From a virus (Duplodnaviria; Caudoviricetes): a DNA stretch of 35,529 nucleotides. Each line of letters begins with the position of its first letter. Within the stretch, counting starts at the first letter, position 1. The position numbers and the translations under genes were made by a program. The notes under the pieces were generated by a model, which did not search any database, was not told where the DNA came from, and saw only the letters and a program-made list of their open reading frames with translations. Of the stretch, positions 1 through 30,018 are shown in pieces. The stretch lies in the IMG/VR virus record IMGVR_UViG_3300043618_000010, positions 1 to 35,529 of that record; one strand, written 5' to 3'.

Positions 1-482
1 AGCCGTTCAATCATCTCTGCAGTCTCGGACTCACGCTGCACGATGGAGAGTCGCGCCTTGCCGTTGGTGCCGTTCTTGAAGCAGAGACATCCCTCTCCGT
101 CGAACATGCCCGCTAGCCATCCGGCTTCCCATGAGCGGTCGTTTTCCCAGACGTCGATGGCGTGCATGACCTCGTCGCCGGGCTTGAGGCTGTCCGCTCT
201 GACCCACTGCCACCGGTTTCCCCGGAACCTTCGAGACAACCACGGGTGGGCGTAGTTGCAACGCACAGACCCCTTCGGCGTGTTTATCAGGAGAAGTGCG
301 TCACGGTGAGATGAATTCCCGGTGACGACCGCTCTTCGATATAGACGTCCTCGGGAACCTCGTTGCCCGCGCCCGTCTGGCGCCTCTTCATCGAATGCGA
401 TCAGCTCATCGCCTACTAATAGATCACCGGCAGGGCGCCATAATAGATCCGCGCACAAAATGGGAGTGTCCATACTCACACA
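1..482 (-). mobile_element. Intein with LAGLIDADG homing endonuclease (N-terminal part)
   Basis: Block A CVSMDTPILCAD (Cys codon 482-480); WRPAGDLLVGDELIAFDE; block B RCNYAHPWL (His 248-246); WVRADSLKPGDEV; LAGLIDADG motif GWLAGMFDGEG (122-90). Confidence 0.9.
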
Positions 483-638
483 CTGTACGGCCCTTTCCGC
501 AGCCAAAAGTGCGGCGTCCAACGCTTTGGTTTGGGCGTCGTAGCGTTGCTGGTGGCGCAGGTTCTGCTCGTTGAGTAGCGCGGTGAAATGCGCGTGGAGG
601 GTTCGGAGCGTCCACTCCTCATCGCGTCGCGGCCCCAT
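1..638 (-). CDS. Intein-containing coiled-coil protein downstream of the tail genes (3' end truncated by window edge; possibly lysis-region protein)
   Basis: Manual translation from ATG 638 (SD GAGAGGGG upstream) is open to the window edge: MGPRRDEEWTLRTLHAHFTALLNEQNLRHQQRYDAQTKALDAALLAAERAVQ|CVSMDTPILCADLLWRPAGDLLVGDELIAFDE... Absent from the ORF track because it has no stop in the window. Confidence 0.85.
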   Translation of the reverse strand, partial: MGPRRDEEWTLRTLHAHFTALLNEQNLRHQQRYDAQTKALDAALLAAERAVQCVSMDTPILCADLLWRPAGDLLVGDELIAFDEEAPDGRGQRGSRGRLYRRAVVTGNSSHRDALLLINTPKGSVRCNYAHPWLSRRFRGNRWQWVRADSLKPGDEVMHAIDVWENDRSWEAGWLAGMFDGEGCLCFKNGTNGKARLSIVQRESETAEMIER

Positions 639-784: not shown

Positions 785-949
785 ATGGGGCGCGACAAGC
801 CGTTAGAGGTTAAGAACGTCGGCAGGTCTGTGTCTAAGCCTGCGTGGACTGTCGGCGACATCCTGTGGTTGATCTTCACTGCTGGTCTGGCGTGGCCGAT
901 CATCTGGTTGAAGCGGCGCAACAAGATGGTCGTCACACGCCATCAGTAG
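785..949 (+). CDS. Small single-pass membrane protein (moron, 54 aa)
   Basis: AGGAGG SD then ATG 785; MGRDKPLEVKNVGRSVSKPAWTVGDILWLIFTAGLAWPIIWLKRRNK...; opposite strand to the virion operon. Confidence 0.75.
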   Translation: MGRDKPLEVKNVGRSVSKPAWTVGDILWLIFTAGLAWPIIWLKRRNKMVVTRHQ

Positions 950-964
950 AACGGGCAGCAAGCC

Positions 965-1138
965 CTACGCGTCGGCGCGGAGTTTCTCCAGCTCGGCGTT
1001 GGCCTGGTCGAGTTCGGCCTTGAAGTGGAGGGCGAGTGCCTTCATCTGCGCTGCCTGGTCGAGGGCGGTGTTGCGCTGTTCGGTGAGCGCCTGGGCGAGC
1101 ACTTCGACGGGGACAGAGAACTGCTGCTGGTCATCCAT
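965..1138 (-). CDS. Small coiled-coil protein after tail fibre (possible fibre chaperone)
   Basis: MDDQQQFSVPVEVLAQALTEQRN...; SD AAGGA; overlaps the end of the fibre gene. Confidence 0.75.
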   Translation of the reverse strand: MDDQQQFSVPVEVLAQALTEQRNTALDQAAQMKALALHFKAELDQANAELEKLRADA

Positions 1139-4100
1139 GCGCGGGTTCCTTCGTTTTGTAGTAGCGGTATGGGCCATCGCCGCGCACATCGACCTCCGTG
1201 CGCAGCGGTTCAACGAGCATGTCGGCTGTGTCGGCGCGGATGGCTTTCACGATCCACGTAACGCGTAGCCCCGGGCCGCCATGGATCCGGAACTGTCCGT
1301 CTTCCGGGTAGGTGGCGGAAGCGTTCCGGATCTCGTCTGAGCAGGTGTTCACGGCAACGGCGCGACCGGCTCTGTGGGTGAGTGCCTCGAAGTAGTCGGG
1401 CAGCTGTACGACGGCGTGGCCTTGGTCGTCGAGGGTGGTTTCGCCCCAGTACTCGACTCCAGCGTGAGGGCTCTCCGTGCAGGCGTGTACCAGCCACCGG
1501 TCGGGGTCGGTCGGGTGGTCGATGATGAACGACTTGATCGACGTCCCGTCGACGTTCCACCCCGATGAGGTGCATTCCAGGTAGTGGCCGGTGCCTCCGT
1601 AGTAGCACTGCAGGCGTGTGGAGGTCTCAGCCATGTAAAGCCAGCTGAGATAGCCGCCAACCCCTCCGTTGTTGATCAATATCATCGAAGCGTCCGTGGG
1701 CCCTGCGGAGATCTCACTCCACCGGTTGCTGTTCGTTGCCGAAGCTGACGAAATCAAGCCCACACCGGCCTGATTGCTGCCATTGCCGAACTCAAGGATT
1801 CGCGCGTATGTCGTGCCGTTGCTGACGTAGAACTTGAGGTCGTTGGTTGCGTTGTCCACGACAATACGTCTGCCGCCGAAACCAGTGGATAGCTTCCCCA
1901 CCAAGGTCACGTCGCCAGTCGACGCGGAAATGTCCACGGTCTGCTGGCTGCCGGAGTTGTACGCCTTGAACCCTGTGCCGTCGAGTTGAATGCGTGCACC
2001 TGTGGCGGCGCTGCGCAGTTCGAACGCGCCGCTCAACGACAGCGACACGGTGCGGACGTTGCTTGCGTTGTACAGCTCGATGCCGGACACGTTGGAGAAG
2101 TCCAGACGGGCTCCTGTGGTGGCCGACCTGAGAAAAAACACCCCGTTGTTCTGCAACGACACCAGCAGGGTTCCGGCCGCGTTGTAGCCCTGCAACCCGG
2201 TGGTGTTGAGCTCCACCCGTTGGCCGCTCGAAGCCGTCCGGATGCTCGCGCCGATGATCCAGTTCGCCGAGATGGTGCCAGCCGTGACCTTGGTAACGGT
2301 CAGGTCCGAGATGTGGGCGTCGTCAATCAGCAGCGCGGTAGCCGTGGCAGCGGTAGACGGGGAGCTCTTGTTCCCCGCCTGATCCACAGCGATCACCTTG
2401 ACGTACCGGGTCGTGATCTCCTCAACGTCGACCGTCCCAACAGCAGGGATCAGCGCCGCGATCATCCCCGCGTTGGCCGCAACCTGCCCCTTGAGGGTGG
2501 TCGAGTCCGGCGTGTATCCAGACGAAGCCCCAACGTGCACCTCAAGATGGTCGAGGTCTAGCTCTAGGTTGTAGGTCCCACCGGACGCCTTACCAAGCGT
2601 GTGTGTGATCTGGATCGCCAGCCGCGACCCAGCCACGGTGGGAGGCGCTGGGGTCGACGGCGGGATCGTGTCCGGGTTGGCCGTCGCCGTTCCTGTAGCC
2701 GACCAAGCGCCCTGGTTTCCGTACAGGTCGACGGCCCGGATCTGGAAGTCGTAGTCCACACCTGGGGACAGGTCGAGGATCTGAGCTTGCAGGTCACCCC
2801 ACGAGGCGTAGGCGAGCTGCCAGTCCGTGGTCGCAGGGTTGAGCCCGTACCGGATCTCGTAGTGCGACCCGTCCAAGATCGTAGATCCGTCGACGTTCAG
2901 CGGGAGCAGCCAGTTGGCCAGGATCCGCGCCCTGGTGTTGCCCAGGCCATCGAGGTAGACGCCCGTGGTGAACGGCAGATCCCAGGACACCACGCCGGGG
3001 ATGGTGGAGTCCGGGATCGGGCGCGGACCCACCGGTTCCGTGCCTGCGTTGGTCAACGACCTGCTCAGCTCGCCCACGCCGATGCTGGTAGCCCCGGTCT
3101 CAGGGTTGACGTAGTCGGTGAGGTTGATCCATGTGCCGTCCTGGTGGCGGTAGGCGACCGTCATCCGCTCCGTGACCGGCCACGACGTCTCCACAGCCCT
3201 CAGCTTGATCGGGTTGATCCGCTGGCCCCGGAACGTGATCTCCTGCGCCGTGTCCACCAGCCCGGCGTCAGGGTCGTACACCCACACGTAGTCGCCAACC
3301 TGAAACGAGCCCCGAATCTCGTAGTCGTCCGCCGACAACTTCAACGCGTTCCTGGTACCGGTGAACCTGTTGAGCTGCAGCTGGGCGCGAGCGTTCGCGT
3401 TGCCCGTCGACGTCGTCGACTCGCTCACCAGGCGGACCCGCTTCACCGGGTTGCCGCGAATATCCAAATACGGGTTCGACAGGATGTTCGCCGCTCCCGT
3501 AGCCGTCGACTCGCCTTCACCTTCGGCCAGCAGCACCACCCGTGTGGTGAAGTCCTCAACGTCGCGCGAGAGTTGCATGTCGCCGGTGATGCCGGTCAAC
3601 GTCAGGTCCTTGCCCGCGTCCTTCCGCACCACCACACACGTGGGGGTGGTGACGTACAGGTTCGCGATCGGGCCCGCATCCAAGGTGGCGTTGCCGTTGA
3701 CCCGCCACTCGGCGTTCATCGTCTGGCACACGTAGTCGACGGCCTTGCCGCGCGACTGCCAAATGTGCTGACCCGAGTAGGTTCCAGCCACCGAGTACAG
3801 GGTGCCAACCACCACGGACGTACTGCCCGTCATGAGCTGTGTGATCGCTTGGGCGAAGGTCTTGTTGCTGATGGACTCTGGGGTCTCGAAGACTTCGCCC
3901 TTGTCGTCGGAGTCGCCCAGCCAGACGGCCATGCCCTGGCCGCCGATGCGGGCCTCGTCGTCGAGTTCCCGCTTGGTCAGGACACCCACGTAGCGGGCCA
4001 TGCTCAGCAGGTTGTCGCCGTACTCGGCCGGATTGACCCTACCCGGAACGATCGCAATGTGCCCGAAGTAGGCCAGCCGGTCGAGGATCTCGCGCGGGGT

Positions 4101-4160
4101 TTCCGCCTGAAGGGTGATGCCCCACGAGCCCAAGTTCATGAGCTTCTCGTTGACGGTCAC
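1131..4160 (-). CDS. Large minor tail protein / central tail fibre (hub-like N-terminus, FN3 domain, beta repeats, C-terminal chaperone-like domain)
   Basis: GTG 4160 overlaps the upstream stop (GTGA); FN3-like LSPGVDYDFQIRAVDLYGNQGAWS; ~37-aa repeats (LRSATTGARLDF...); C-terminal KSFIIDHPTDPDRWLVHACTESP. Confidence 0.85.
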   Translation of the reverse strand: MTVNEKLMNLGSWGITLQAETPREILDRLAYFGHIAIVPGRVNPAEYGDNLLSMARYVGVLTKRELDDEARIGGQGMAVWLGDSDDKGEVFETPESISNKTFAQAITQLMTGSTSVVVGTLYSVAGTYSGQHIWQSRGKAVDYVCQTMNAEWRVNGNATLDAGPIANLYVTTPTCVVVRKDAGKDLTLTGITGDMQLSRDVEDFTTRVVLLAEGEGESTATGAANILSNPYLDIRGNPVKRVRLVSESTTSTGNANARAQLQLNRFTGTRNALKLSADDYEIRGSFQVGDYVWVYDPDAGLVDTAQEITFRGQRINPIKLRAVETSWPVTERMTVAYRHQDGTWINLTDYVNPETGATSIGVGELSRSLTNAGTEPVGPRPIPDSTIPGVVSWDLPFTTGVYLDGLGNTRARILANWLLPLNVDGSTILDGSHYEIRYGLNPATTDWQLAYASWGDLQAQILDLSPGVDYDFQIRAVDLYGNQGAWSATGTATANPDTIPPSTPAPPTVAGSRLAIQITHTLGKASGGTYNLELDLDHLEVHVGASSGYTPDSTTLKGQVAANAGMIAALIPAVGTVDVEEITTRYVKVIAVDQAGNKSSPSTAATATALLIDDAHISDLTVTKVTAGTISANWIIGASIRTASSGQRVELNTTGLQGYNAAGTLLVSLQNNGVFFLRSATTGARLDFSNVSGIELYNASNVRTVSLSLSGAFELRSAATGARIQLDGTGFKAYNSGSQQTVDISASTGDVTLVGKLSTGFGGRRIVVDNATNDLKFYVSNGTTYARILEFGNGSNQAGVGLISSASATNSNRWSEISAGPTDASMILINNGGVGGYLSWLYMAETSTRLQCYYGGTGHYLECTSSGWNVDGTSIKSFIIDHPTDPDRWLVHACTESPHAGVEYWGETTLDDQGHAVVQLPDYFEALTHRAGRAVAVNTCSDEIRNASATYPEDGQFRIHGGPGLRVTWIVKAIRADTADMLVEPLRTEVDVRGDGPYRYYKTKEPAHG

Positions 4161-5335
4161 CTCTTCACCGCCATCGTCGCCTCCGGCATGCTCGCGACGT
4201 ATTGGTCCCTCAGGTTCGTGGCCTGGTCTCCGGACACGGCGCTTCCGCCGCCCGCAACTACGCCGACGTAGAAGTCGAGCCACGTGGTTGAGGTCTTGGT
4301 GAGGCCGCCATTGGCGTGCGGGTCGAAGTTTCTCGCCGATCCGGCGATGGCCCTGTTGCCGTTCGCGTCGTCGGTCGTCTTCACCACGTACGAGGTCGAG
4401 TCGGTCATGGTTTCGGAGGTAGCCAAGTAGAAGCTGAGCGTGCCGGAGTCGCCTCGCTGGAGATAGCCCTCGACGACCCTGGAACCTCGCCTGAGCGTCA
4501 AATCCAGCACCGCCCTACCCACCGTTGAACGGTTCTCGGTCAGCCGCAGAACGCACATCTCCGGGTCGTTGCGCAGGATCGTCGCAGCCTCGAACCGGGC
4601 GATCTGCGTGCCGCCGATGTCGGCCCACCAAGCCTTCGTCCGCCACGCACCGCCCGTGAACGACGCGATCTCCAGGGTGCCACCCGACAGCAAAGGCCGC
4701 ACCCTGACCAGCGTGTTGGACAACTCCCAATCGGCAGCCTCGACGGCCTGGCCGACCCCAACCCGCTCGTAGCCGACCGACAGAATCCGAACGCGGCCTT
4801 CAAGGTAGTCGCCGACCTCGCACCCCCACCGTGGGGACACGTTAGCCGGGATCGACCGATACACGGTCAGGGCCCCATCGGAGCCGGTGCGGGTCATCGT
4901 GGACGGGATCGTCGCACCCGTGTAATAGGCGTAATGGGCTGGTGGTGGACAATGCCACCGCTCCCCCGACAACGAGAAATCGTTCGCCCTCACCGCGCCG
5001 GTAAGCCTGGACTCCAGGTCAACGTCCGTATCGGAGCCATGCCTGACCAGGCCCAGCTTCCACTCGGCGACGACCACACCCTCTGCGGCCCGGTCCATCA
5101 TGTCGCCCGCCACAGAGCTGACCGTGTAGTAGCCGGACCGCTCCGGCTTGTCCTCCCAAACGACCGGCACCAGCATCCCCTGAGAGCCCAAAGCAGACTC
5201 ATACCGATACACCACATCAGCTCGCGTCAACGGCGGCATCACCTCACGGCCCACCACCTGCAACACCCCAGCGCCGGTTTCGGAGACCTCCCAGGCTTCC
5301 CGGACGGTGTACCGCCCGATCATGAGGTCGCCCAC
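4157..5335 (-). CDS. Minor tail protein (distal tail position)
   Basis: 392 aa directly after the tape measure gene; SD AAGGAG before GTG. Confidence 0.75.
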   Translation of the reverse strand: MGDLMIGRYTVREAWEVSETGAGVLQVVGREVMPPLTRADVVYRYESALGSQGMLVPVVWEDKPERSGYYTVSSVAGDMMDRAAEGVVVAEWKLGLVRHGSDTDVDLESRLTGAVRANDFSLSGERWHCPPPAHYAYYTGATIPSTMTRTGSDGALTVYRSIPANVSPRWGCEVGDYLEGRVRILSVGYERVGVGQAVEAADWELSNTLVRVRPLLSGGTLEIASFTGGAWRTKAWWADIGGTQIARFEAATILRNDPEMCVLRLTENRSTVGRAVLDLTLRRGSRVVEGYLQRGDSGTLSFYLATSETMTDSTSYVVKTTDDANGNRAIAGSARNFDPHANGGLTKTSTTWLDFYVGVVAGGGSAVSGDQATNLRDQYVASMPEATMAVKR

Positions 5336-11528: not shown

Positions 11529-11866
11529 CAGCCCTCCATCCGGCGTAGCCGCGCCTCGGTGTGGTGGTAGCCGGAGAAGTCGTGGGCTGGCCAGGCGGGG
11601 CCGTCGAGCTCGTAGAGGACGCCATCCCATTGGATGCGGTCGCCTGCGTCAATGCCGTCGTAGTTGGTGATCAACAGCCACATGCCAGCGATCTTCGTCC
11701 GGCCGTCTGGTGTGGACTCGCTGGCCGACTCCTGCTCGATCAGCGCGGGGAAGCTGGTCCGTGTGGCTGCGGCACCGTAGTCAAGCTTGGAGTTGCCATA
11801 TCGGTCGGCGATGGAGGCGGGGTGGATCAGCGTTGCCGTGATCGGCAGGTAGCCGTCGGGGATCAC
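11528..11866 (-). CDS. Head-to-tail stopper / head closure protein
   Basis: DRYGN...IDAGDRIQWDGVLYELDGPAW...HHTEARLRRMEG. Confidence 0.85.
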   Translation of the reverse strand: MIPDGYLPITATLIHPASIADRYGNSKLDYGAAATRTSFPALIEQESASESTPDGRTKIAGMWLLITNYDGIDAGDRIQWDGVLYELDGPAWPAHDFSGYHHTEARLRRMEG

Positions 11867-12867
11867 ACCGCACCCGCCATGACCGCCTCAACCGCGGCGA
11901 CCCACCGCCGGAGATCCTCATCCGGGTTCAGCTCCGCCGCTCGGAGCTCTGCTTTGCGGGAGGCTGCAGCCCATCCTCTGGGCTGCAGGAGACGGCGTAT
12001 CTGCAACTCCCAGCCGTCCAGGTCGTCACGGTCGACGAACGTTCCGGCGTTGCCGAGACACTCCATAAGGCCGGGTGTTGGGTGTGCCACGACCGGTATC
12101 CCGCTGCACATCGCTTCCACCGCGGTCCGCCCCCACGACTCATAGGAGGACGGCATCAACAGCAGCCTCGTACGGGCGTACGCGGCCTCACGCATCCGGT
12201 GACCTGGCACGTGGTGTTGGACGTCGACGTTTCGCAGACCCTTCACGATCTGCTCGCCATAGGCGCCCTTGACCGCCAGGAACGGCACGTCCGGCATGCG
12301 TGCGGCCAGCTTCCAGAACGTGCTGCCGCCCTTGTTGGCGCTCAGGTTGATCAGCGTGACCCGGGCGCCCGGCGTAGTCCGATAGTTCTCAGCCAGCACA
12401 GGAGGACGTACGACGATGCTGGATGGTGGTGGCGCGTCCTGTGTCTGCCCCCACCAGTCCAGACAAGAGACCTGCACCCACTCGGAGTTGTAGACCACCA
12501 GGCGGGGGCCGCGCGTCATCCACGAACGCTCGTTCTGATTGTCGTTGTGCAGAACGTGAACGACAGGAAGCCGGTACAGCTCACCCAGAATGGTGGCCTG
12601 CGGTGTGCTCCTCAGATGTGTGACCAGCACGTCCGGCGGCGACTCGCCGAGGACCGCCTGTTGGGCGTCTTTGTTGTCTCGGAACGGGTGCACCCGCACC
12701 CCGTCCAAGACGTACGGGTCGCCGCCCTGCCGGCTGTCGGTCAACACCACCTGAACCTCGTGCCCTCGCGCCACAAGCGCGGAGAGCAGCGTGTGCATAG
12801 CCCACTCGGCTCCCGCGTTCCCGCCAGGCGGGTACAGGTGGACAAGCGCCAGAACCCGCACGGACAC
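11863..12867 (-). CDS. Glycosyltransferase, GT-B fold family 4-like
   Basis: N-terminal HLYPPGGNAGAEW; EX7E motif PSSYESWGRTAVEAMCSGIPVV. Confidence 0.92.
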   Translation of the reverse strand: MSVRVLALVHLYPPGGNAGAEWAMHTLLSALVARGHEVQVVLTDSRQGGDPYVLDGVRVHPFRDNKDAQQAVLGESPPDVLVTHLRSTPQATILGELYRLPVVHVLHNDNQNERSWMTRGPRLVVYNSEWVQVSCLDWWGQTQDAPPPSSIVVRPPVLAENYRTTPGARVTLINLSANKGGSTFWKLAARMPDVPFLAVKGAYGEQIVKGLRNVDVQHHVPGHRMREAAYARTRLLLMPSSYESWGRTAVEAMCSGIPVVAHPTPGLMECLGNAGTFVDRDDLDGWELQIRRLLQPRGWAAASRKAELRAAELNPDEDLRRWVAAVEAVMAGAV

Positions 12868-22724: not shown

Positions 22725-22943
22725 TCAGGCGCACCAGCGTGGGACGTCCCACTCGGCGGCCTTGAGTGCTTCTGTCGCCATCTCGGCGGCTTGCGGGTGT
22801 CCTTCAGCGACCATTCGGAGGACGTGCCGCATGAGGTCGTCTTCAGCCCCGTGTGCCGCTTCTGGGTCGCCTCGGCAGGTGTCTCGGATGTGGGCCATGG
22901 CGTGCTGGAGGCTGACGACGTCATTGAGATCGTCCAGGCTCAC
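22725..22943 (-). CDS. Hypothetical protein (72 aa)
   Basis: MSLDDLNDVV...GDPEAAHGAEDDLMRHVL...WDVPRWCA; GTGA-coupled. Confidence 0.7.
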   Translation of the reverse strand: MSLDDLNDVVSLQHAMAHIRDTCRGDPEAAHGAEDDLMRHVLRMVAEGHPQAAEMATEALKAAEWDVPRWCA

Positions 22944-23455
22944 GGCCGCTTCCACCAGTAGTAGGCGAGGACGTCGCCCTTCCAGGTGTCTACGACGCCG
23001 GGGTTGAGCTCGTTGAGCATGGCCTCGTACGTCCAGTGGTCGATGTGGCGTTCGAACGGGTTGCCGTTGACGGCGTCCTGGTCGAGGTGGAGAACGGGGA
23101 TGGCGATCAGCAGGTTGGGGAACTGCAGTTTGAGCCCGTCGAGCAGGACGCTGGCATGTAGGCGGCTCATGTGTTCCAGGACGTCCCCGGCGATGACGAG
23201 ATCGGCGGTGAGGAACCACGACCAGTCGACCAGGCGAGCGTCGGCCACGTGAGCCACGTCGTACAGCTGGTCGAGCTGGTAGGTGGTGATATAGGGGCCC
23301 CACGCTTCTATGCCGACCCAGTGCGCGCGGTGGTGTGGTCGCATGAGTTTGGCGTAGGTGCCATCACCGGGCCCGATGTCGATGACGAGCTCGGGTCGGA
23401 TTTTCAGGTAGGTGTGGAGCGCCCAGTCTTTGCCTTGCGGGTCTGAGGTGGGCAT
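22940..23455 (-). CDS. Class I SAM-dependent methyltransferase
   Basis: Motif I VIDIGPGDGTY, VGIEAW, DLVIAGDVLEHM; no DNA-MTase catalytic motif visible. Confidence 0.9.
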   Translation of the reverse strand: MPTSDPQGKDWALHTYLKIRPELVIDIGPGDGTYAKLMRPHHRAHWVGIEAWGPYITTYQLDQLYDVAHVADARLVDWSWFLTADLVIAGDVLEHMSRLHASVLLDGLKLQFPNLLIAIPVLHLDQDAVNGNPFERHIDHWTYEAMLNELNPGVVDTWKGDVLAYYWWKRP

Positions 23456-23471
23456 GCGCGGGTCCTTGCGG

Positions 23472-23750
23472 TTAGGGGCCGACGAGGATGGGGCCGGAGC
23501 GGCGGACTGGTTCCTCAGGTGGGGCGTCGATGCGGACCCAGGCGGTGTACACGCCTGGGGTGAGCATGAGGGCGGTCCCGGGGCCGATGAGGACCTTGTA
23601 GGAGCCGTCTCCGTCCCACGTCGCGGGCAACCAGTCGGCTTCGGCGGGTTCTCCGCCGGCCACAACGGCGATCTCTGCGGAGATGTCGGCTGCCCCGTCG
23701 TCCACGGGGATGTGTAGGTATTCCTTGCTGGTGGCGGCGATACCGGCCAT
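23472..23750 (-). CDS. Fibre adaptor protein, paralog B
   Basis: SKEYLHIPVD...W..A.W...VLIGP...GVYTAWVRIDAPPEEPV; similar to 27902-28186. Confidence 0.75.
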   Translation of the reverse strand: MAGIAATSKEYLHIPVDDGAADISAEIAVVAGGEPAEADWLPATWDGDGSYKVLIGPGTALMLTPGVYTAWVRIDAPPEEPVRRSGPILVGP

Positions 23751-23762
23751 TGCACCCCCTCT

Positions 23763-25118
23763 CTAGAACACTGGTTCGCCGACCCGCCATTTGAATGTGG
23801 GCGGTCGGGCGATGACCTTTATGTCGAGGTCGCCGATGCTGACCGCGGTGACGGCGCCTCTGCCTGGGCGCAGGAGGATCACACCGGCACGGCCGGTCAG
23901 GGTGACAGAGGTGCTGCCGTCGCCTACGGCGGTGACGGAGCCTGCGCCGGGCCGTACCCAGATGACGCCGGCGGAGCCTTGGAGCGTCTGCTGTTGTACG
24001 GCTAGCACCGCGGCCGCGCCGGGGCGCACCCTGATGGAGCCTGTGGAGCCTTGCAGGAGCGTCTGCCGGACGGCCGTGACTGTGGCGGATCCTGGCCGTA
24101 GACGGATCGACGCGGTGGTCCCTTGCGGGGCGGCGTTTTGGACGGTGTGGACGGTTCCGTGCCCGGCTGAGACCCGGATGGTTGCGGTGTAGCCCACGTT
24201 GAGGCTGATCGCCCCGGTTGAGATGCTGCCCGCCGATGCTCGGACCCGGATCGACCCGTTCTTGCCTGCCAGGGTCGCGATCTGGACGGGAGCGGATTGG
24301 CCGGCGGAGGCGCGCAGCTGGATGGAGCCTGCCCTGCCGGTGAGAACGATGCTGGCTGCGGAGGTGAAGAGGCCGGAGCCTGCGCGGACGCGGATGCTGC
24401 CGGTCGACCCCTGTACGGCGACGACGCGGGCCGCTATGACCGTCCCTGCGGATGCTCGCACCCGGATGGAACCGGACGCTCCCGCAGAGGTGACGGCCTG
24501 AACGGTGGTGACCTGCCCGGCGGAGGCTCGGACTTGGATGGTTCCTGAGCGGCCTGATAGTTGAACGGTCTGGCCGAGTGTGAACGCCCCGGAGCCGGCG
24601 CGGACACGGACCGAGCCGGTTGTGCCCTGGAGAGCGACGACCTGGGCGGCGGTGACCGAGCCTGCGGAGGCGCGGACCCGCACGGTTCCGCTGCTGCCCT
24701 GCACGGACACGACCTGGGCGGCGACGACGCTGCCAGCGCTTGCCCGAACCCTGATCGATGCGGTCGTGCCGGCCATTGGGGCGTTGCGGGCTGCCTGGAC
24801 GGCGGCCTGTCCCGCCCGGACGAGGATGCTGCCTGAGCGGCCCGCGACGGGGGCGGCTTGGACGGCGAGAATGGTCCCGGCAGAGGCCCTGACCCTGATG
24901 GCGGCTGTGTTGCTGGCGGTCAGGATGTCGGTGACGCTGACCGATCCCGCGCTCGCGGACACCCTGATGGTGCCTGTGGTGCCCTGCAGGGTGACGCTTG
25001 TAGCCGACGCTGCTGCGCTACGAGCGACGGCAGGGCGACGGCGGACCCAAGGGGCGCGGGATGCGGCCCGGAAGACGGCTACGCCCGTGCGCCGCGACGG
25101 GTACGTCCGCCGCGCCAT
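23763..25118 (-). CDS. Basic repeat fibre/shaft protein (~16 x 24-aa repeats)
   Basis: Repeat LxGxxGSIRVRASAGxVxAxQxx; Arg-rich N-terminus. Confidence 0.8.
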   Translation of the reverse strand: MARRTYPSRRTGVAVFRAASRAPWVRRRPAVARSAAASATSVTLQGTTGTIRVSASAGSVSVTDILTASNTAAIRVRASAGTILAVQAAPVAGRSGSILVRAGQAAVQAARNAPMAGTTASIRVRASAGSVVAAQVVSVQGSSGTVRVRASAGSVTAAQVVALQGTTGSVRVRAGSGAFTLGQTVQLSGRSGTIQVRASAGQVTTVQAVTSAGASGSIRVRASAGTVIAARVVAVQGSTGSIRVRAGSGLFTSAASIVLTGRAGSIQLRASAGQSAPVQIATLAGKNGSIRVRASAGSISTGAISLNVGYTATIRVSAGHGTVHTVQNAAPQGTTASIRLRPGSATVTAVRQTLLQGSTGSIRVRPGAAAVLAVQQQTLQGSAGVIWVRPGAGSVTAVGDGSTSVTLTGRAGVILLRPGRGAVTAVSIGDLDIKVIARPPTFKWRVGEPVF

Positions 25119-25120
25119 GG

Positions 25121-25591
25121 TCAGCCGCCGATCTCTTCAAAGTAGAGGGTGCCGGACACGGTGATGCTGTCGGCCGGGGTCGTGGCGAGCTCGATGGTGT
25201 ATCGCTGCGAAGGCGACAGGACGTGCCGGATCTCTGGGGTCGGCAGGCCGGGGAATGGTCCGCGGATGTACCAGTTCTCGCTGTGCAGGGTGGTGATGGT
25301 GCCGCTTGTGGCCTTGGTCGTGTTGTTGACCTTGCAGGTGCTTCCTGCTGCGGGAGATCCGAACTCCAGGGGCACGGGCGTGGGCGTCGAGCCGCCGCTG
25401 CCTGTGGTGGTTGCACCCCGTTTGAACAGGATGCTCAGTCCCTCTTCCTGCGCGTCGCCGACCTCGGTCGACTGGGTGAGCACCAGGTTGTGGATGAGGA
25501 CCACCGCATCTGATGGTGCGGCGATCTCGAAGAAGTCTTGCTGCGCTGTCACCGCAACGCCAGAGAACTGCACGCTGTACATCAGGCCCAC
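25121..25591 (-). CDS. Beta-rich putative virion appendage protein
   Basis: 156 aa, Thr/Ser/Gly-rich, inside the fibre cassette. Confidence 0.7.
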   Translation of the reverse strand: MGLMYSVQFSGVAVTAQQDFFEIAAPSDAVVLIHNLVLTQSTEVGDAQEEGLSILFKRGATTTGSGGSTPTPVPLEFGSPAAGSTCKVNNTTKATSGTITTLHSENWYIRGPFPGLPTPEIRHVLSPSQRYTIELATTPADSITVSGTLYFEEIGG

Positions 25592-25600
25592 GAGGTCACC

Positions 25601-26611
25601 TCATCCGGTCCAGTCGGTGGTGGAGACCCCGCTCGGGGTCCAGTACTTGCCGCTGTCTCCTGGGGAGCCGTAGGCGGCGCCGGGCGGTACCAGCCACCGG
25701 TTGCGGCGCCACAGGTTGCCGCTGCCGTCGGTCCAGCCGTACAACTCGAAAAACACGGGTTGGATCAAAGTGGACAACGTGTTGTCCGTGAACACCACGT
25801 TGGTGTTGCCGCTCCCGTTGCCGCCGATGTTGACGGTCGCGCCGAACCCGCCAAGCAGGTTCCCGGTCGCGGTGATGTTGGAGTAGTACTGCGGGGTGCC
25901 CGGGTCTACCTGCAACGCGATCGCGTTCGTGTTGCCGCCGGAGATGATCGTGTTGTTGCGGATCGTGATGTACGAGACGTTCGATCCACCGTTCGAGGAA
26001 AGGATCCCGTCGTGGTGGTAGACATCGTGCGACTGGTCCGCGGCGTCGTGCATGTAGCAGCTCTCGACCGTCACTGGGTTGGTCGCGGTCGAGCTGACGT
26101 CAAGTTGGATGGCGTTGCCGAAGCCCCAGAATTCGCACCGCCGGGCGGTCAGCCCAACCCCGGAGTGGTTGACCCCGAACTGGTAGGACTGGGCGAAGGA
26201 GACGGGCGGCGATCCCACGGAGGCAGGCCGAAAGGTGCAGTACTCGAACGTGGTGTTCGTCCCGTAGTCCTGCACGTTGGGAAAGTTGGGCGCTGTCGCC
26301 TCGAACAGGCAGCCCCTGAACGTCACACCGCTGGGTCGAGACCCTGCGGTTCCGATGGCCACCCCGCCGTTGAACCGCAAACCCTGGTATGTGGTGCCGT
26401 TGAACGCGACCGGGATTGGGTCGGCTCCGCTGTAGTTGGTCAGGCTGCCCGTGTAGCCCGGCCACGCGGTGTAGCCGGTGTTGGTGGCGTCCGGGAACCC
26501 TTCCATCGCGCCCGTACCGGCCCGCAGACGCACCGCGCCCGCAGCACCAGTCAGGAGCGCAGCGATCATGGCCGTCGAGGGCCGGGCGATTCGCGTGACG
26601 ACAACGCCCAC
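25601..26611 (-). CDS. Parallel beta-helix (pectin-lyase-like) protein, putative adhesin or depolymerase
   Basis: VTFRGCLF, TTFEYCTF, VTVESCYMHD, HHDGI, ITIRNNTI, ITATGNLL, VVFTDNTL repeats. Confidence 0.8.
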   Translation of the reverse strand: MGVVVTRIARPSTAMIAALLTGAAGAVRLRAGTGAMEGFPDATNTGYTAWPGYTGSLTNYSGADPIPVAFNGTTYQGLRFNGGVAIGTAGSRPSGVTFRGCLFEATAPNFPNVQDYGTNTTFEYCTFRPASVGSPPVSFAQSYQFGVNHSGVGLTARRCEFWGFGNAIQLDVSSTATNPVTVESCYMHDAADQSHDVYHHDGILSSNGGSNVSYITIRNNTIISGGNTNAIALQVDPGTPQYYSNITATGNLLGGFGATVNIGGNGSGNTNVVFTDNTLSTLIQPVFFELYGWTDGSGNLWRRNRWLVPPGAAYGSPGDSGKYWTPSGVSTTDWTG

Positions 26612-26618
26612 CCGCGTA

Positions 26619-27284
26619 TCAGCCCGTGAAAGTCACGAGCAAGCCCTCGCCGGCGTCCAGCTGCGGCGTGAAGGCGCCGCCGTTGGATGCGGTCTGGGTG
26701 CCGCCCAGGTCCCAGTAGAGAAGGACTGGGGAGGTCGAAGGGGTGCCGGTGTCCTTGAAGAACAGCACGTGGGAGGCGACAAGGCTCCCGGGGTTGATCG
26801 TCGTCCAGCTCGGGTCGGCGGCATCGATGAGCAGCACCCCGCGGCCCACGCACGTCCAGGTGACACCGCCATCTACCACTGTCTGGCCGATGACCGTCGC
26901 GTACGTGGGGATGCTGGCGCCGGACGTGCCCGCAGTAGTGGCCTGGTAGACGAACCCGTTGCCGGTTACGGGCCGGACCACGTCGCCTACGGTGTAGGCC
27001 GTGCTGTTGGCCCGCTGCGTCGCCCACGAGTTCGCCGCGGTGTAGGCGACCGTCTTGCTCGTGAGCGTCTGGCCGCCGGCGGTGTAGCCGGTGTTGCCGC
27101 CGCCGGTCGCCTCCACACCGACGCCGCCGGTGACAACATCGCTGAGGAACTGGGCGGTATCGGCCGTGCTGCCCACGGTGTAAGAGGACAGCAGCATCGC
27201 CTTGATCGTGTCGGATGCGAAGTTGACGCGAGCCTCGAAAAGGCTCTGCTGCAGCTTGCCGTACACGAACACCGTGACAGCCAT
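26619..27284 (-). CDS. Fibre/appendage structural subunit with inserted CBM-like module
   Basis: DTIKAMLL...GYTAGGQTL...DAADPSW...TSPVLLYWDLG; insert NSTAYTVGDVV...GFVYQATTAGTSG...DGGVTWT. Confidence 0.75.
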   Translation of the reverse strand: MAVTVFVYGKLQQSLFEARVNFASDTIKAMLLSSYTVGSTADTAQFLSDVVTGGVGVEATGGGNTGYTAGGQTLTSKTVAYTAANSWATQRANSTAYTVGDVVRPVTGNGFVYQATTAGTSGASIPTYATVIGQTVVDGGVTWTCVGRGVLLIDAADPSWTTINPGSLVASHVLFFKDTGTPSTSPVLLYWDLGGTQTASNGGAFTPQLDAGEGLLVTFTG

Positions 27285-27309
27285 GACGTACTCCTAGATC
27301 AGTGACGTG

Positions 27310-27900
27310 TTAGCGGACAAGAAGCCGGCGCCGAGCGTTCGCGTAAGGCCGCGGCGGCGGGCCGAAAGAGGCATCGACGAGCGTGGAGGCGCTGTTGCCT
27401 GCAGTGCCGTCCCATGTAGCGCCCGCTGAACCGCCATCGAAGTAGGTGTCGAGGACCCCCACCTGCTCGTACAACACCGCACTGAAATTGGTCGGGTTGC
27501 CCGAGTAGTCCTCGCCGAAGCAGAGCAGCCGCAGCCACACCGTGGAAGCTGGCGAGGTGGCGGTGATGCTCACCCGTGTAGCCGCTCCGGTCGGAGCGGT
27601 TGGGAACGCGACGGTGGCCTCGCTGATCTCGTTCAGCCCCGAGTCGAGCCACTGAATCGCCAGCGTCCCGCCAAGCGTGAAGTTGGTCGGGCGGACATAC
27701 GTGCTGACGGTGTACGTGAGGCTTGGGGATGCCGCTCCGGGGGGGCCGAACATGTATGAGGACGCGCTGTATCTGGCCGCCCATGTTCGCGGGAAGCCCT
27801 GCCCGGTCACGTCCGTTCGGACGGGGGTTTCGCCGCCGGCCCAGTCCGTGTTGTTGTTCGTAAGGCAGGGGTTGGGGCACAGGTTGTGGCGGGTGGCCAT
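27310..27900 (-). CDS. Carbohydrate-binding-like (galactose-binding fold) virion protein
   Basis: RHNLCPNP...W...YTVSTYVR...IQWLD...YFDG...WDGT; basic C-terminal tail NARRRLLVR. Confidence 0.7.
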   Translation of the reverse strand: MATRHNLCPNPCLTNNNTDWAGGETPVRTDVTGQGFPRTWAARYSASSYMFGPPGAASPSLTYTVSTYVRPTNFTLGGTLAIQWLDSGLNEISEATVAFPTAPTGAATRVSITATSPASTVWLRLLCFGEDYSGNPTNFSAVLYEQVGVLDTYFDGGSAGATWDGTAGNSASTLVDASFGPPPRPYANARRRLLVR

Positions 27901-27901
27901 G

Positions 27902-28186
27902 TCAGGTGATCTGCAGTAGGGACGGGCCGAGGACGGGGATCTCCGGTGCGGCGGTGATCTTTACCCAGATGCCGTACCGGACGCCCTTCGTCAACGCCAG
28001 GCCGGTTGCGGGGCCGACCAGGACGGCTGCGTCAGTTCCGATCCACTGCGCCGACTGCCAGTCGCCGCCGGCCGGATCCTGTCCGTCGGGCAGTATCGCC
28101 ATCTGCACGGTGAACGTCGTCATGTTCGCCGGGCCGTCCACCGGGACCTTCACGTACTCGACGCTCAGGCTGGGGATTCGCAGCAA
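27902..28186 (-). CDS. Fibre adaptor protein, paralog A
   Basis: GGAGG then TTG 28186; SVEYVKVPVD...W..A.W...VLVGP...GVRYGIWVKITAAPEIPV. Confidence 0.75.
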   Translation of the reverse strand: MLRIPSLSVEYVKVPVDGPANMTTFTVQMAILPDGQDPAGGDWQSAQWIGTDAAVLVGPATGLALTKGVRYGIWVKITAAPEIPVLGPSLLQIT

Positions 28187-28200
28187 CCCGCACCTCCAGG

Positions 28201-29403
28201 TCAGGTGGTGGGTGGGCGGGAAGGCCAGCCGGGCGAGGGGTCGGACGCCGACCATGAACGTGACGGCTCGGTTGAACTCCAGCCGCGGTGCGGGGCGCCT
28301 GCCACGACGGTGACGTCTTCCAGGACGACCACCGTCAGCGCGTCGGTGCCGGACACGGTGTCGGTGAGGCTCTTCGGGAAGATCTCGATGGCGGTCAGGT
28401 TGTCGACGGCGGTGACCGTGTCCGTCAGGGGGACGGACGCGACGACGCCCAGCAGGTCGACGCCTGCGACTGGTTCGTCGAGCTGCGGCGCCGGAACGCC
28501 GACCAAGTCATCGATCGCAATGACCGTGTCGGTCAGGTCGATGGGGACGCCGCCGGTGACGTCGTCGGTGACGGTCCCCGTGTCCGCGAGCGTGACGGTG
28601 GCGACCACCGTCAGGTCGTCGACCGCGGTTACCGTGTCCGCCAGGTCGACCGAGGCAGACACCGTGAGGGCATCCACGACGGCCGCCGTCTCGGCCAGCG
28701 GAGTGGCCGCGTCCGCAGCCAACGTGTCGGAGACAGCGCCGGTCTCGGTGAGGGTGATCGGGGTCGCCGCGGAGGCGGCGATGTTCACGGTGAACCCGTG
28801 ATACTCGGGAACGCCTGTGTCGGCGGTGAACGTCTGCACGCCCGACGCGCCACCACTGACCAGCGTCCGCGTAGCGGTAGTGGTCAGCGCGTAATTGCCG
28901 GACTGGATATCGGTCCGCTCAGTGAACCCGGCGGGCGGGGTGAAGGTTCGCGGAGACCCAGGCGCGTGGAGGGCGACGCACCGAATCTCGAAGTCATCAG
29001 AACCAGTCGGGGTCGTGGACGGGGTTGTGCATGAGGAGGTGCTGGAGTTGCTGCCGCTCTGCGCCACCACAGGGGTACTGGTGGCCCCGTCCTGCACGGC
29101 GATAATTGACACGGAGCCGTCGGCGCCCGAGTTCTGGGTGAACCCGTAGGTCGAGGGTTCACTGCCGCCCGCGACTTTCCACCAAGCTTTGCTTCCTGCG
29201 CCGGTCCCGTCATCGCGGATCCTGGAGGCCAGCAGGTTCCAGGTAGCGCCCCCGGTAGGGGTGCCCATGTCGGCGAGGGTTCCGGCGTCGGCGGCGTGGA
29301 AGCAGATGAGGATGTCGCCAGAGACGGTGGCGGCTGGCTTGTTGCAGTTGAACGATGCGGTGGTGCCGGAGGCGCTTTGGGATGCGTCGCGGTAGGACGG
29401 CAT
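28201..29403 (-). CDS. Fibre protein: globular N-domain plus acidic shaft (~8 x 18-aa repeats)
   Basis: KPAATVSGDILI...WWKVAGGSEPSTY head; repeat LxDTVTAVDxL. Confidence 0.8.
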   Translation of the reverse strand: MPSYRDASQSASGTTASFNCNKPAATVSGDILICFHAADAGTLADMGTPTGGATWNLLASRIRDDGTGAGSKAWWKVAGGSEPSTYGFTQNSGADGSVSIIAVQDGATSTPVVAQSGSNSSTSSCTTPSTTPTGSDDFEIRCVALHAPGSPRTFTPPAGFTERTDIQSGNYALTTTATRTLVSGGASGVQTFTADTGVPEYHGFTVNIAASAATPITLTETGAVSDTLAADAATPLAETAAVVDALTVSASVDLADTVTAVDDLTVVATVTLADTGTVTDDVTGGVPIDLTDTVIAIDDLVGVPAPQLDEPVAGVDLLGVVASVPLTDTVTAVDNLTAIEIFPKSLTDTVSGTDALTVVVLEDVTVVAGAPHRGWSSTEPSRSWSASDPSPGWPSRPPTT

Positions 29404-29439
29404 CAGCTACCCCCGGACTCCCCGCCTGTAGTTGTTGAT

Positions 29440-30018
29440 CTAGGAGAACGTGCAGGTCGCAGTTGCCGCCCACGTCTGCGGGCTCGCCTTCGTTCCCTGG
29501 GCGATGCTCGTCTTGTGGTTGAACAGGGTGGCGGCCACGGTGTTGCCAGACACCGCGGTGGGAGCTCCGATGTCGATCCCGAATTCATTCCACGCGAAGT
29601 TCCCGTCCGCCGAGGCGAACGTGGACTTGAGGGTGAGGACGCCGGCGGCCACCTGCGGGTAGGTGGCGTCCATGATCTGGAACCACCGGTTGGCGGATCC
29701 GGCGGCAGCTGACAGGTTGGTGTCGCCGACCGCCGCCGTTCCTGCACCGTTGCCGACACCGATGCGGGCGGAGGTGTTGGTGATGGCCTGCCCGCCAGAG
29801 GCGATGAGCAGCGCAGTCAGGCGGGTCAGCCCGGCTGTGGTGATCAAGTTGCCGTGGACTTCGCTCGTGTCGTAAGGCGTGACGCCGAGCCGATGGAACA
29901 CGTCGGCGGGTGGCGCAGCGAGGCCGCTGCGGGTTCTCACCCACGCGGTCTGGTGGTCATCCCACCGGTCGATACGCCAGTGGGTGGTGGCGTGCACGGC
30001 CTCTCTGGTTGCGGTCAT
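29440..30018 (-). CDS. Fibre/collar-type structural subunit
   Basis: NLITTAG...IGVGNG...DTNL...STF...GNFAWNEFGI...LFNHK resembles tail-collar fibre N-domains. Confidence 0.7.
   Translation of the reverse strand: MTATREAVHATTHWRIDRWDDHQTAWVRTRSGLAAPPADVFHRLGVTPYDTSEVHGNLITTAGLTRLTALLIASGGQAITNTSARIGVGNGAGTAAVGDTNLSAAAGSANRWFQIMDATYPQVAAGVLTLKSTFASADGNFAWNEFGIDIGAPTAVSGNTVAATLFNHKTSIAQGTKASPQTWAATATCTFS

Follow-up and report, generated by a model that had tools for sequence, protein, structure and literature searches.

The window, by which we mean the whole 35,529-nt stretch of DNA analysed here, matches IMG/VR record IMGVR_UViG_3300043618_000010 exactly, a linear viral fragment of 66% GC that is 58% complete. 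A circular record was ruled out, as the two ends share no terminal overlap. Genes for terminase, capsid, tape measure and tail lie on the minus strand, and the nearest relative of the capsid is that of Streptomyces phage SF1/SF3 (48%), a likeness that makes an actinobacterium the probable host of the phage. The window DNA is present in one sample only, and no RNA run contains it. On the minus strand, a large tail gene is followed by two short ORFs and then by the ORF that is the subject of this work, which opens with an ATG at 638 and, after 212 aa, is truncated by the window's left boundary. An alternative in-frame ATG lies upstream at 716; the start at 638 has a ribosome-binding-like site, GAGAGGGG, and relatives begin at about the same position.

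An initial annotation of this DNA had described an unlisted ORF in which a 52-aa helical N-extein is joined in frame to three intein motifs (CVSMDTPIL, NYAHPW and GWLAGMFDGEG), and all of these could be located (Table 1). The protein encoded in the window has 143 longer proteins as matches at E ≤ 0.001; for the best of them, E values range from 1e-125 to 1e-70 and identities from 55 to 69%. This places the intein call far above chance. The Pfam intein models stay below their cut-off on the same protein, and Pfam therefore misses this intein family.

Table 1 Features of the intein gene and other notable stretches of the window.
Feature	Positions	Strand	Remarks
N-extein, 52 aa, helical	483..638	-	ends AAERAVQ; makes up the first half of the host protein's long helix
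Intein block A, CVSMDTPIL	456..482	-	Cys1 (Cys53 of the ORF) at 482-480; site g, AAERAVQ|T
Intein block B, NYAHPW	240..257	-	conserved His = H131
Single LAGLIDADG motif, GWLAGMFDGEG	90..122	-	with acidic residue
N-terminal 160 aa of the intein (of ~259 aa)	1..482	-	remainder and C-extein left of the window
54-aa ORF with hydrophobic stretch	785..949	+	between tail genes and intein gene, on the opposite strand; no match in Pfam and PHROGs searches
57-aa coiled-coil-like ORF	965..1138	-	immediately follows the large tail gene; Pfam and PHROGs searches gave no significant family
Glycosyltransferase-like gene	11863..12867	-	amid the head-tail connector region
Long repeat-rich genes and methyltransferase-like ORF	22940..30018	-	read by eye; upstream of the terminase

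The gene could be followed beyond the left end of the window in contigs from two runs, X1 and X2, of one sample that is a possible source of the window DNA. One X2 contig covers window positions 1–422 and reaches a further 556 nt to the left. Aligned to L113, a same-site relative, this contig matches at the LAGLIDADG motif and again at EKRF-SVNEFR within the C-extein; the two are 411 letters apart as against 402 in L113, which keeps the frame. The loose ends beyond the match translate as family sequence, KAVTKAEVAA before it (X1 contig) and GAYQDIIALQ after it. From this we infer that the window gene runs on in frame into the expected C-extein and that the intein is ~259 aa long, a length that rests on the spacing; the ~315 nt of the window copy that would include the His-Asn|Thr junction could hold a stop or another change. 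The leftward extension called for by the initial annotation has thus yielded the C-extein, while the His-Asn|Thr junction is read only in relatives; together with full-length relatives, the in-frame C-extein upholds the claim of a genuine intein.

Intein motifs, fold and endonuclease domain

Among 239 proteins fetched, 63 belong to the host family once the intein is removed, and these give 64 complete inteins of 251–278 aa. The first residue is Cys in 63 of them and Ser in one, all 64 end in His-Asn, and the +1 residue is Ser (35) or Thr (29), with Thr in all five relatives at the window's own site, site g. The DGEG of the LAGLIDADG motif is kept in 63 of the 64. The His of block B is invariant in alignments of the relatives, and the Thr that is usual in this block is replaced by Asn in the window intein and in 47 of the 64. 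An AlphaFold model of P0004, a relative at the same site encoded at 4001–5197 of L113 (pLDDT 88), contains Hint strands, extein helices and a LAGLIDADG domain with the order α-β-β-α-β-β-α, and in a Foldseek search with this model inteins rank first, including the PhoVMA, TliVMA, GyrA and DnaB inteins. By its motifs and predicted fold, the intein is of class 1, with Cys1, a His-Asn end, Ser or Thr at +1 and a Hint domain. No mini-intein was found among the best 120 short proteins of a search whose queries favour full inteins.

The endonuclease domain, which the initial annotation did not recognise as single, departs from the canonical arrangement, in which blocks C and E each provide a motif (Kelley 2016 supplement, PMC5050341). 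One LAGLIDADG motif is present in 128 of 135 inteins, none in seven by the pattern used and two in none, and the P0004 model holds one domain in place of the two found in monomeric intein endonucleases. The intein resembles in this respect I-CreI and I-CvuI (PMC3943268), which carry one motif per chain and dimerise through the LAGLIDADG helix, an arrangement that is predicted here; I-CvuI is itself among the Foldseek matches of the P0004 model (E 7e-4). Unlike those enzymes, the LAGLIDADG domain of the intein is embedded in a Hint domain.

A model with two copies of P0004 gives a homodimer score of 0.67, compared with 0.00 for the best control, with contact agreement between runs of at least 94%, pLDDT of at least 89 and an interface on the LAGLIDADG helix (residues 160–175). 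The mark for a homodimer was reached by 20 of 30 solved homodimers and by 1 of 23 monomers. The single domain is thus predicted to homodimerise via its LAGLIDADG helix, and the score may also stem from likeness to solved dimers of the I-CreI type. Additionally, the DNA of empty sites shows a small excess of two-fold symmetry about position +4, with 3.04 of 9 pairs as against 2.45 in controls (p = 1.6e-4; 111 sites, 970 control Ser/Thr/Cys codons, 41 offsets tried). The excess persists across 45 intein clusters (3.21 ± 0.22); it comes mostly from the more distant inteins, and at the 16 closest sites it is not evident (2.69 vs 2.45). With the best offset taken for each, the symmetry of empty sites is not above control (p = 0.46). 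The +4 symmetry thus lends weak support to a homodimeric nuclease. Directly at the point of insertion no strong palindrome was found, offsets 0 to +3 being equal to the control.

A coiled-coil host family with a predicted C-terminal anchor

We built a profile from four intein-free relatives and scored 7,998 candidates with it, which gave at least 1,865 intein-free clusters of 79–321 aa. Members are mostly 135–200 aa long and share a motif of their own, KRF-SVNEFR. A hydrophobic C-terminal stretch is found by hydropathy in 115 of 120 intein-free and 60 of 63 intein-bearing host proteins; no TM-like stretch precedes the final 45 residues in any of the 120 intein-free ones. In the structural model, a continuous helix spans residues 11–86 (76 residues) and is followed by a kink and a second helix that ends in the anchor. 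The host thus appears, from its predicted structure, to be a small non-enzymatic coiled-coil phage protein with a C-terminal membrane anchor. One of the loci, L018, carries a tandem pair of genes of the coiled-coil/C-terminal-TM kind at 3151–4337.

None of our searches gave this family a name. No Pfam domain was found in the best 120 of the at least 1,865 intein-free clusters, and four intein-free members have no Pfam match even at E ≤ 0.5. In PHROGs no significant family was found, PHROG 937 ('hemolysin') matching one of four proteins at E = 0.22. NCBIfam returned scattered weak matches, each to at most 10 of 68 members, which we read as coiled-coil noise and set aside. Comparison with PDB sequences gave nothing significant (best E 0.035, a keratin), and no fold match was found in BFVD (best E 5.6). 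The ESM Atlas returned only 'hypothetical' entries, in clusters that are 94–100% viral, at 0.95–0.96, with recognition below its mark. No homologue of the host is present in INPHARED, a set of isolated phages, or in five bacterial genomes that bear related inteins. The initial view of the host as a small, apparently non-enzymatic coiled coil agrees with the absence of any significant Pfam, PHROGs, NCBIfam, PDB or BFVD family; the search for TM helices that it proposed pointed to the C-terminal anchor, which it had missed, and the profile search recovered intein-free homologues in abundance, exact empty alleles among them.

Insertion sites and relationships of the inteins

Insertion points of the 64 inteins are spread over 12 alignment columns in the stretch from reference position 32 to 72, a multi-site radiation that the initial annotation had not seen. 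Some neighbouring columns may differ only through slips of the alignment or stand for equivalent repeats, and when these are merged nine motif classes of site remain. That the sites are truly distinct follows from P0003, a 747-aa precursor with a host part of 237 aa, which carries two inteins at two of them (e and k). They lie within the most conserved stretch of the host family, where many columns reach 94–100%. Five proteins carry an intein at site g. The corresponding empty site, of the AEKAVQ-TAL type, was seen in 34 of the 120 intein-free proteins, and in two intein-free proteins, P0323 and P0339, the flanks are letter-for-letter those of P0004. In intein-free alleles the +1 residue is Thr in 46 and Ala in 20 of 67 at site g, and Ser in 62 and Ala in 37 of 108 at site k. 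Ala at +1, seen in about a third at both sites, could not support splicing, and these sequences are possibly escape alleles.

A tree of 135 inteins, in which unrelated hosts are represented by the 35 best-scoring only, the others having been left out, places all 71 host-type inteins on one branch (SH-aLRT 98); the 71 comprise the 64, six from a more distant coiled-coil/TM group and that of the window. This branch sorts by site, and the window intein joins site g with a support of 92; sites c, d, e and b each do not form a single branch. With 61 proteins and 12 states (minimum 11), 13 changes of site label are needed on the intein tree as compared with 20 on the extein tree, as expected if the intein of each site homes across divergent hosts. 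At site g, the inteins are 57–67% alike and the exteins 36–45% in 7 of 10 pairs, the remaining extein pairs standing at 56%, 78% and 44–45%. Between inteins of different sites the mean identity is 49%. At the DNA level, which was available for five loci, CAR|ACN-GCN is common to sites d, e and g and may offer a microhomology route for hopping between them.

The sister groups of the host-type branch are inteins in endolysin amidases and in ParB-like proteins; with the membrane-protein inteins these form an open fork, in which transfer could have run in either direction. The amidase inteins (P0042, P0050, P0051, P0053, P0062, P0073 and P0141, with loci L039, L040, L120 and L124; also P0075 and P0152) either immediately precede a His-x-Asp-Pro-Gly motif or occupy a further site, QWQD|T. 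The ParB-like ones (P0071, P0076, P0147 and P0149; loci L127, L128 and L046) sit at DG[FY]|TQP, and a more distant intein, P0165, lies in an SLT lysozyme-like domain. The distant coiled-coil/C-terminal-TM group (P0023, P0025, P0026, P0028, P0038 and P0058; L123 and L192) falls on the host-type branch with about five further sites. One of its loci, L192, is a contig of a Burkholderiales MAG, and the range of the lineage may thus extend beyond actinobacterial phages.

Role of the host protein and origin of the inserted gene

Genes were called in 30 loci, and 103 of 137 neighbours from 27 of these were run on Pfam, with low-scoring ORFs and loci L016, L022 and L034 left out of the count. An endolysin domain or an r1t holin lies between two genes upstream and three downstream of the host gene in 9 of the 27 loci, and the same-site relative L113, where tblastn places an amidase 1.6 kb upstream, brings the total to ten. 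On assumed backgrounds of 12% and 20%, the binomial p for 9 of 27 is 0.003 and 0.07, respectively. Two of eight intein-bearing loci are in a recognisable lysis cassette. In the window itself, no endolysin was found by PF01510 or by tblastn with 12 lysis-region proteins.

We find it quite probable that the gene encodes a class 1 intein with one LAGLIDADG domain, likely self-splicing and spread by selfish homing, in a phage coiled coil with a predicted membrane anchor that likely serves as an accessory lysis protein. Class 1 splicing chemistry is established, and by this route the precursor, probably inactive until then, would restore the long helix of its host, with no sign that the delay is used as a timer. 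The freed intein would dimerise and cut empty alleles in the DNA of co-infecting or resident phages, and repair would copy the intein in. Now and then it would land at a similar Ser or Thr codon nearby and found a new lineage. The lineage may have entered the host gene family once, possibly from a neighbouring endolysin amidase gene, and its target may later have shifted repeatedly along the Ala-rich repeat, so that each site would now have a homing sub-lineage of its own. For the fuller history, in which a compact lysis-cassette intein with a homodimeric LAGLIDADG nuclease crossed from an endolysin gene and then walked along the coiled-coil repeat to give at least nine homing lineages in ~120 bp, we put the chances at about even.

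Three other readings were weighed against this one. The initial annotation suggested that splicing gates the function of the host, for example the timing of lysis, and a domesticated switch of this kind, with coiled-coil assembly held back by slow or conditional splicing, would gain from the position of every site inside one continuous helix, which probably leaves the precursor non-functional, as well as from the recurrence of the lineage in lysis genes, its nearest sisters being in endolysin amidases, and from the amidase located 1.6 kb upstream of the host gene in L113. However, intein-bearing proteins are rare, at 63 as against at least 1,865 intein-free clusters (from different searches), and in 21 viral loci that were found by extein and have the host gene called there is no intein at all. 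The variety of sites, the nuclease motif intact in 63 of 64 inteins and the movement across exteins fit selfish spread, and the same lineage also occurs in ParB-like proteins. We therefore regard a lysis timer as very unlikely. Even less probable is that the window gene is an assembly chimera or a defunct remnant and no working precursor. This view could draw on the truncation of the gene where the contig stops, on low coverage (depth about 6) and on an intein GC3 of 0.66 as compared with 0.83–0.88 in the structural genes of the window. Against this, an X1 contig (23–971) crosses the extein–intein junction with zero differences and X2 contig 4 (398–1500) also covers it, both from one sample; five independent proteins carry an intein at the same site, and the C-extein continues in frame in the X2 contig.

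A closer competitor accepts a genuine and selfish intein and takes the host for a membrane-anchored scaffold of virion assembly or DNA packaging, or for a factor in interaction with the bacterium. In its favour, 17 of the 27 loci have no recognisable lysis gene nearby, some host copies adjoin RecA, terminase, tail tube, glycosyltransferase or DNA polymerase-like genes, and neither sequence nor fold matches known lysis proteins. We hold it to be possible but the less likely view, since in 10 of 27 loci an endolysin or holin gene is only a few genes away, and since the topology is like that of XhlA of PBSX and SPP1 gp24.1. These are described as small proteins with a C-terminal TM helix, encoded with holin and endolysin, that cooperate with a two-TM holin (PMC6316719). 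By analogy, we lean slightly towards the spliced host being a C-terminally anchored holin partner with an accessory role in lysis. The lysis position claimed at the outset is accordingly plausible from the ten loci, and is tempered by the 17 others and by the lack of an endolysin in the window.

A single C-terminal TM helix, assigned to the host by hydropathy, is what host family and XhlA/gp24.1 have in common. The host is longer, has its KRF-SVNEFR motif and often lies outside lysis cassettes; four members have no match to the Pfam XhlA family, and XhlA is not among the 25 NCBIfam families shown for 68 members. LysZ (PMC13123898) and LysF1b/LysA2b (10.64898/2026.08.27.747656; PMC9671378) are reported as helical proteins with one TM segment that have an accessory role in lysis by actinobacterial phages; LysZ and LysF1b carry the TM helix close to the N-terminus, ahead of most of the protein, whereas in the host family it is C-terminal (115 of 120).

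With regard to other intein hosts, the main text of Gosselin 2025 (10.1101/2025.01.02.630785) covers 784 actinophage inteins in 19 hosts, including tape measure, minor capsid and portal; it lists no lysis or membrane protein, and 'lysin', 'holin' and 'membrane' occur 0 times in it. The family described here lies outside these 19. Because non-enzyme hosts are already known in actinophages, it counts as a new host family, the enzyme rule having been broken before; the new class of host proposed initially is in this sense only partly sustained, and the sites are conserved as usual. The nearest inteins in isolated phages, in Gordonia portal and Mycobacterium terminase genes, are 30–33% identical across the entire intein, with matches of about 270–276 codons. 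Those of the Gordonia phage Anamika/Minos portal and the Mycobacterium phage Catera/cluster C terminase are likewise short, with Cys1 and His-Asn, but their hosts differ from the tail-anchored coiled coil, and short inteins of similar size are already present in annotated phages. A literature search, with most subscription papers outside it, brought up no study of this host, of inteins in endolysins or of inteins with a single motif. What is new is the non-enzymatic host family together with an unusually dense multi-site radiation, most likely selfish rather than regulatory. The range of intein hosts thereby grows by a non-enzymatic, tail-anchored protein, whose large and so far unnamed phage family becomes a candidate for a part in lysis.

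How inteins arrive at new sites is still under debate, and the argument has so far drawn on individual examples such as terminase to Cas4. A single clade at many neighbouring sites, with filled and empty alleles, makes nuclease retargeting and microhomology hopping directly testable. In Anaeramoeba (PMC10710043), related inteins occupy non-allelic sites, for which microhomology-mediated non-allelic homing has been proposed; that organism is a eukaryote and the jumps are between genes and paralogues, whereas here they would fall within one short phage gene. Kelley 2016 (PMC5050341) describes five TerL1 sites spread over the ATPase domain, along with an unnamed hypothetical host, in contrast to one branch at 12 columns in ~40 residues here. 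If retargeting is the true reading, this would be the densest intragenic intein radiation that we found described, and a ready series of natural nuclease–target pairs. Compact inteins that appear, from their sequences, to splice within a continuous helix after varied −1 residues could furthermore serve as tools.

Elsewhere in the window, one gene of the repeat-rich block upstream of the terminase holds many copies of a G.IRVRA.AG unit.
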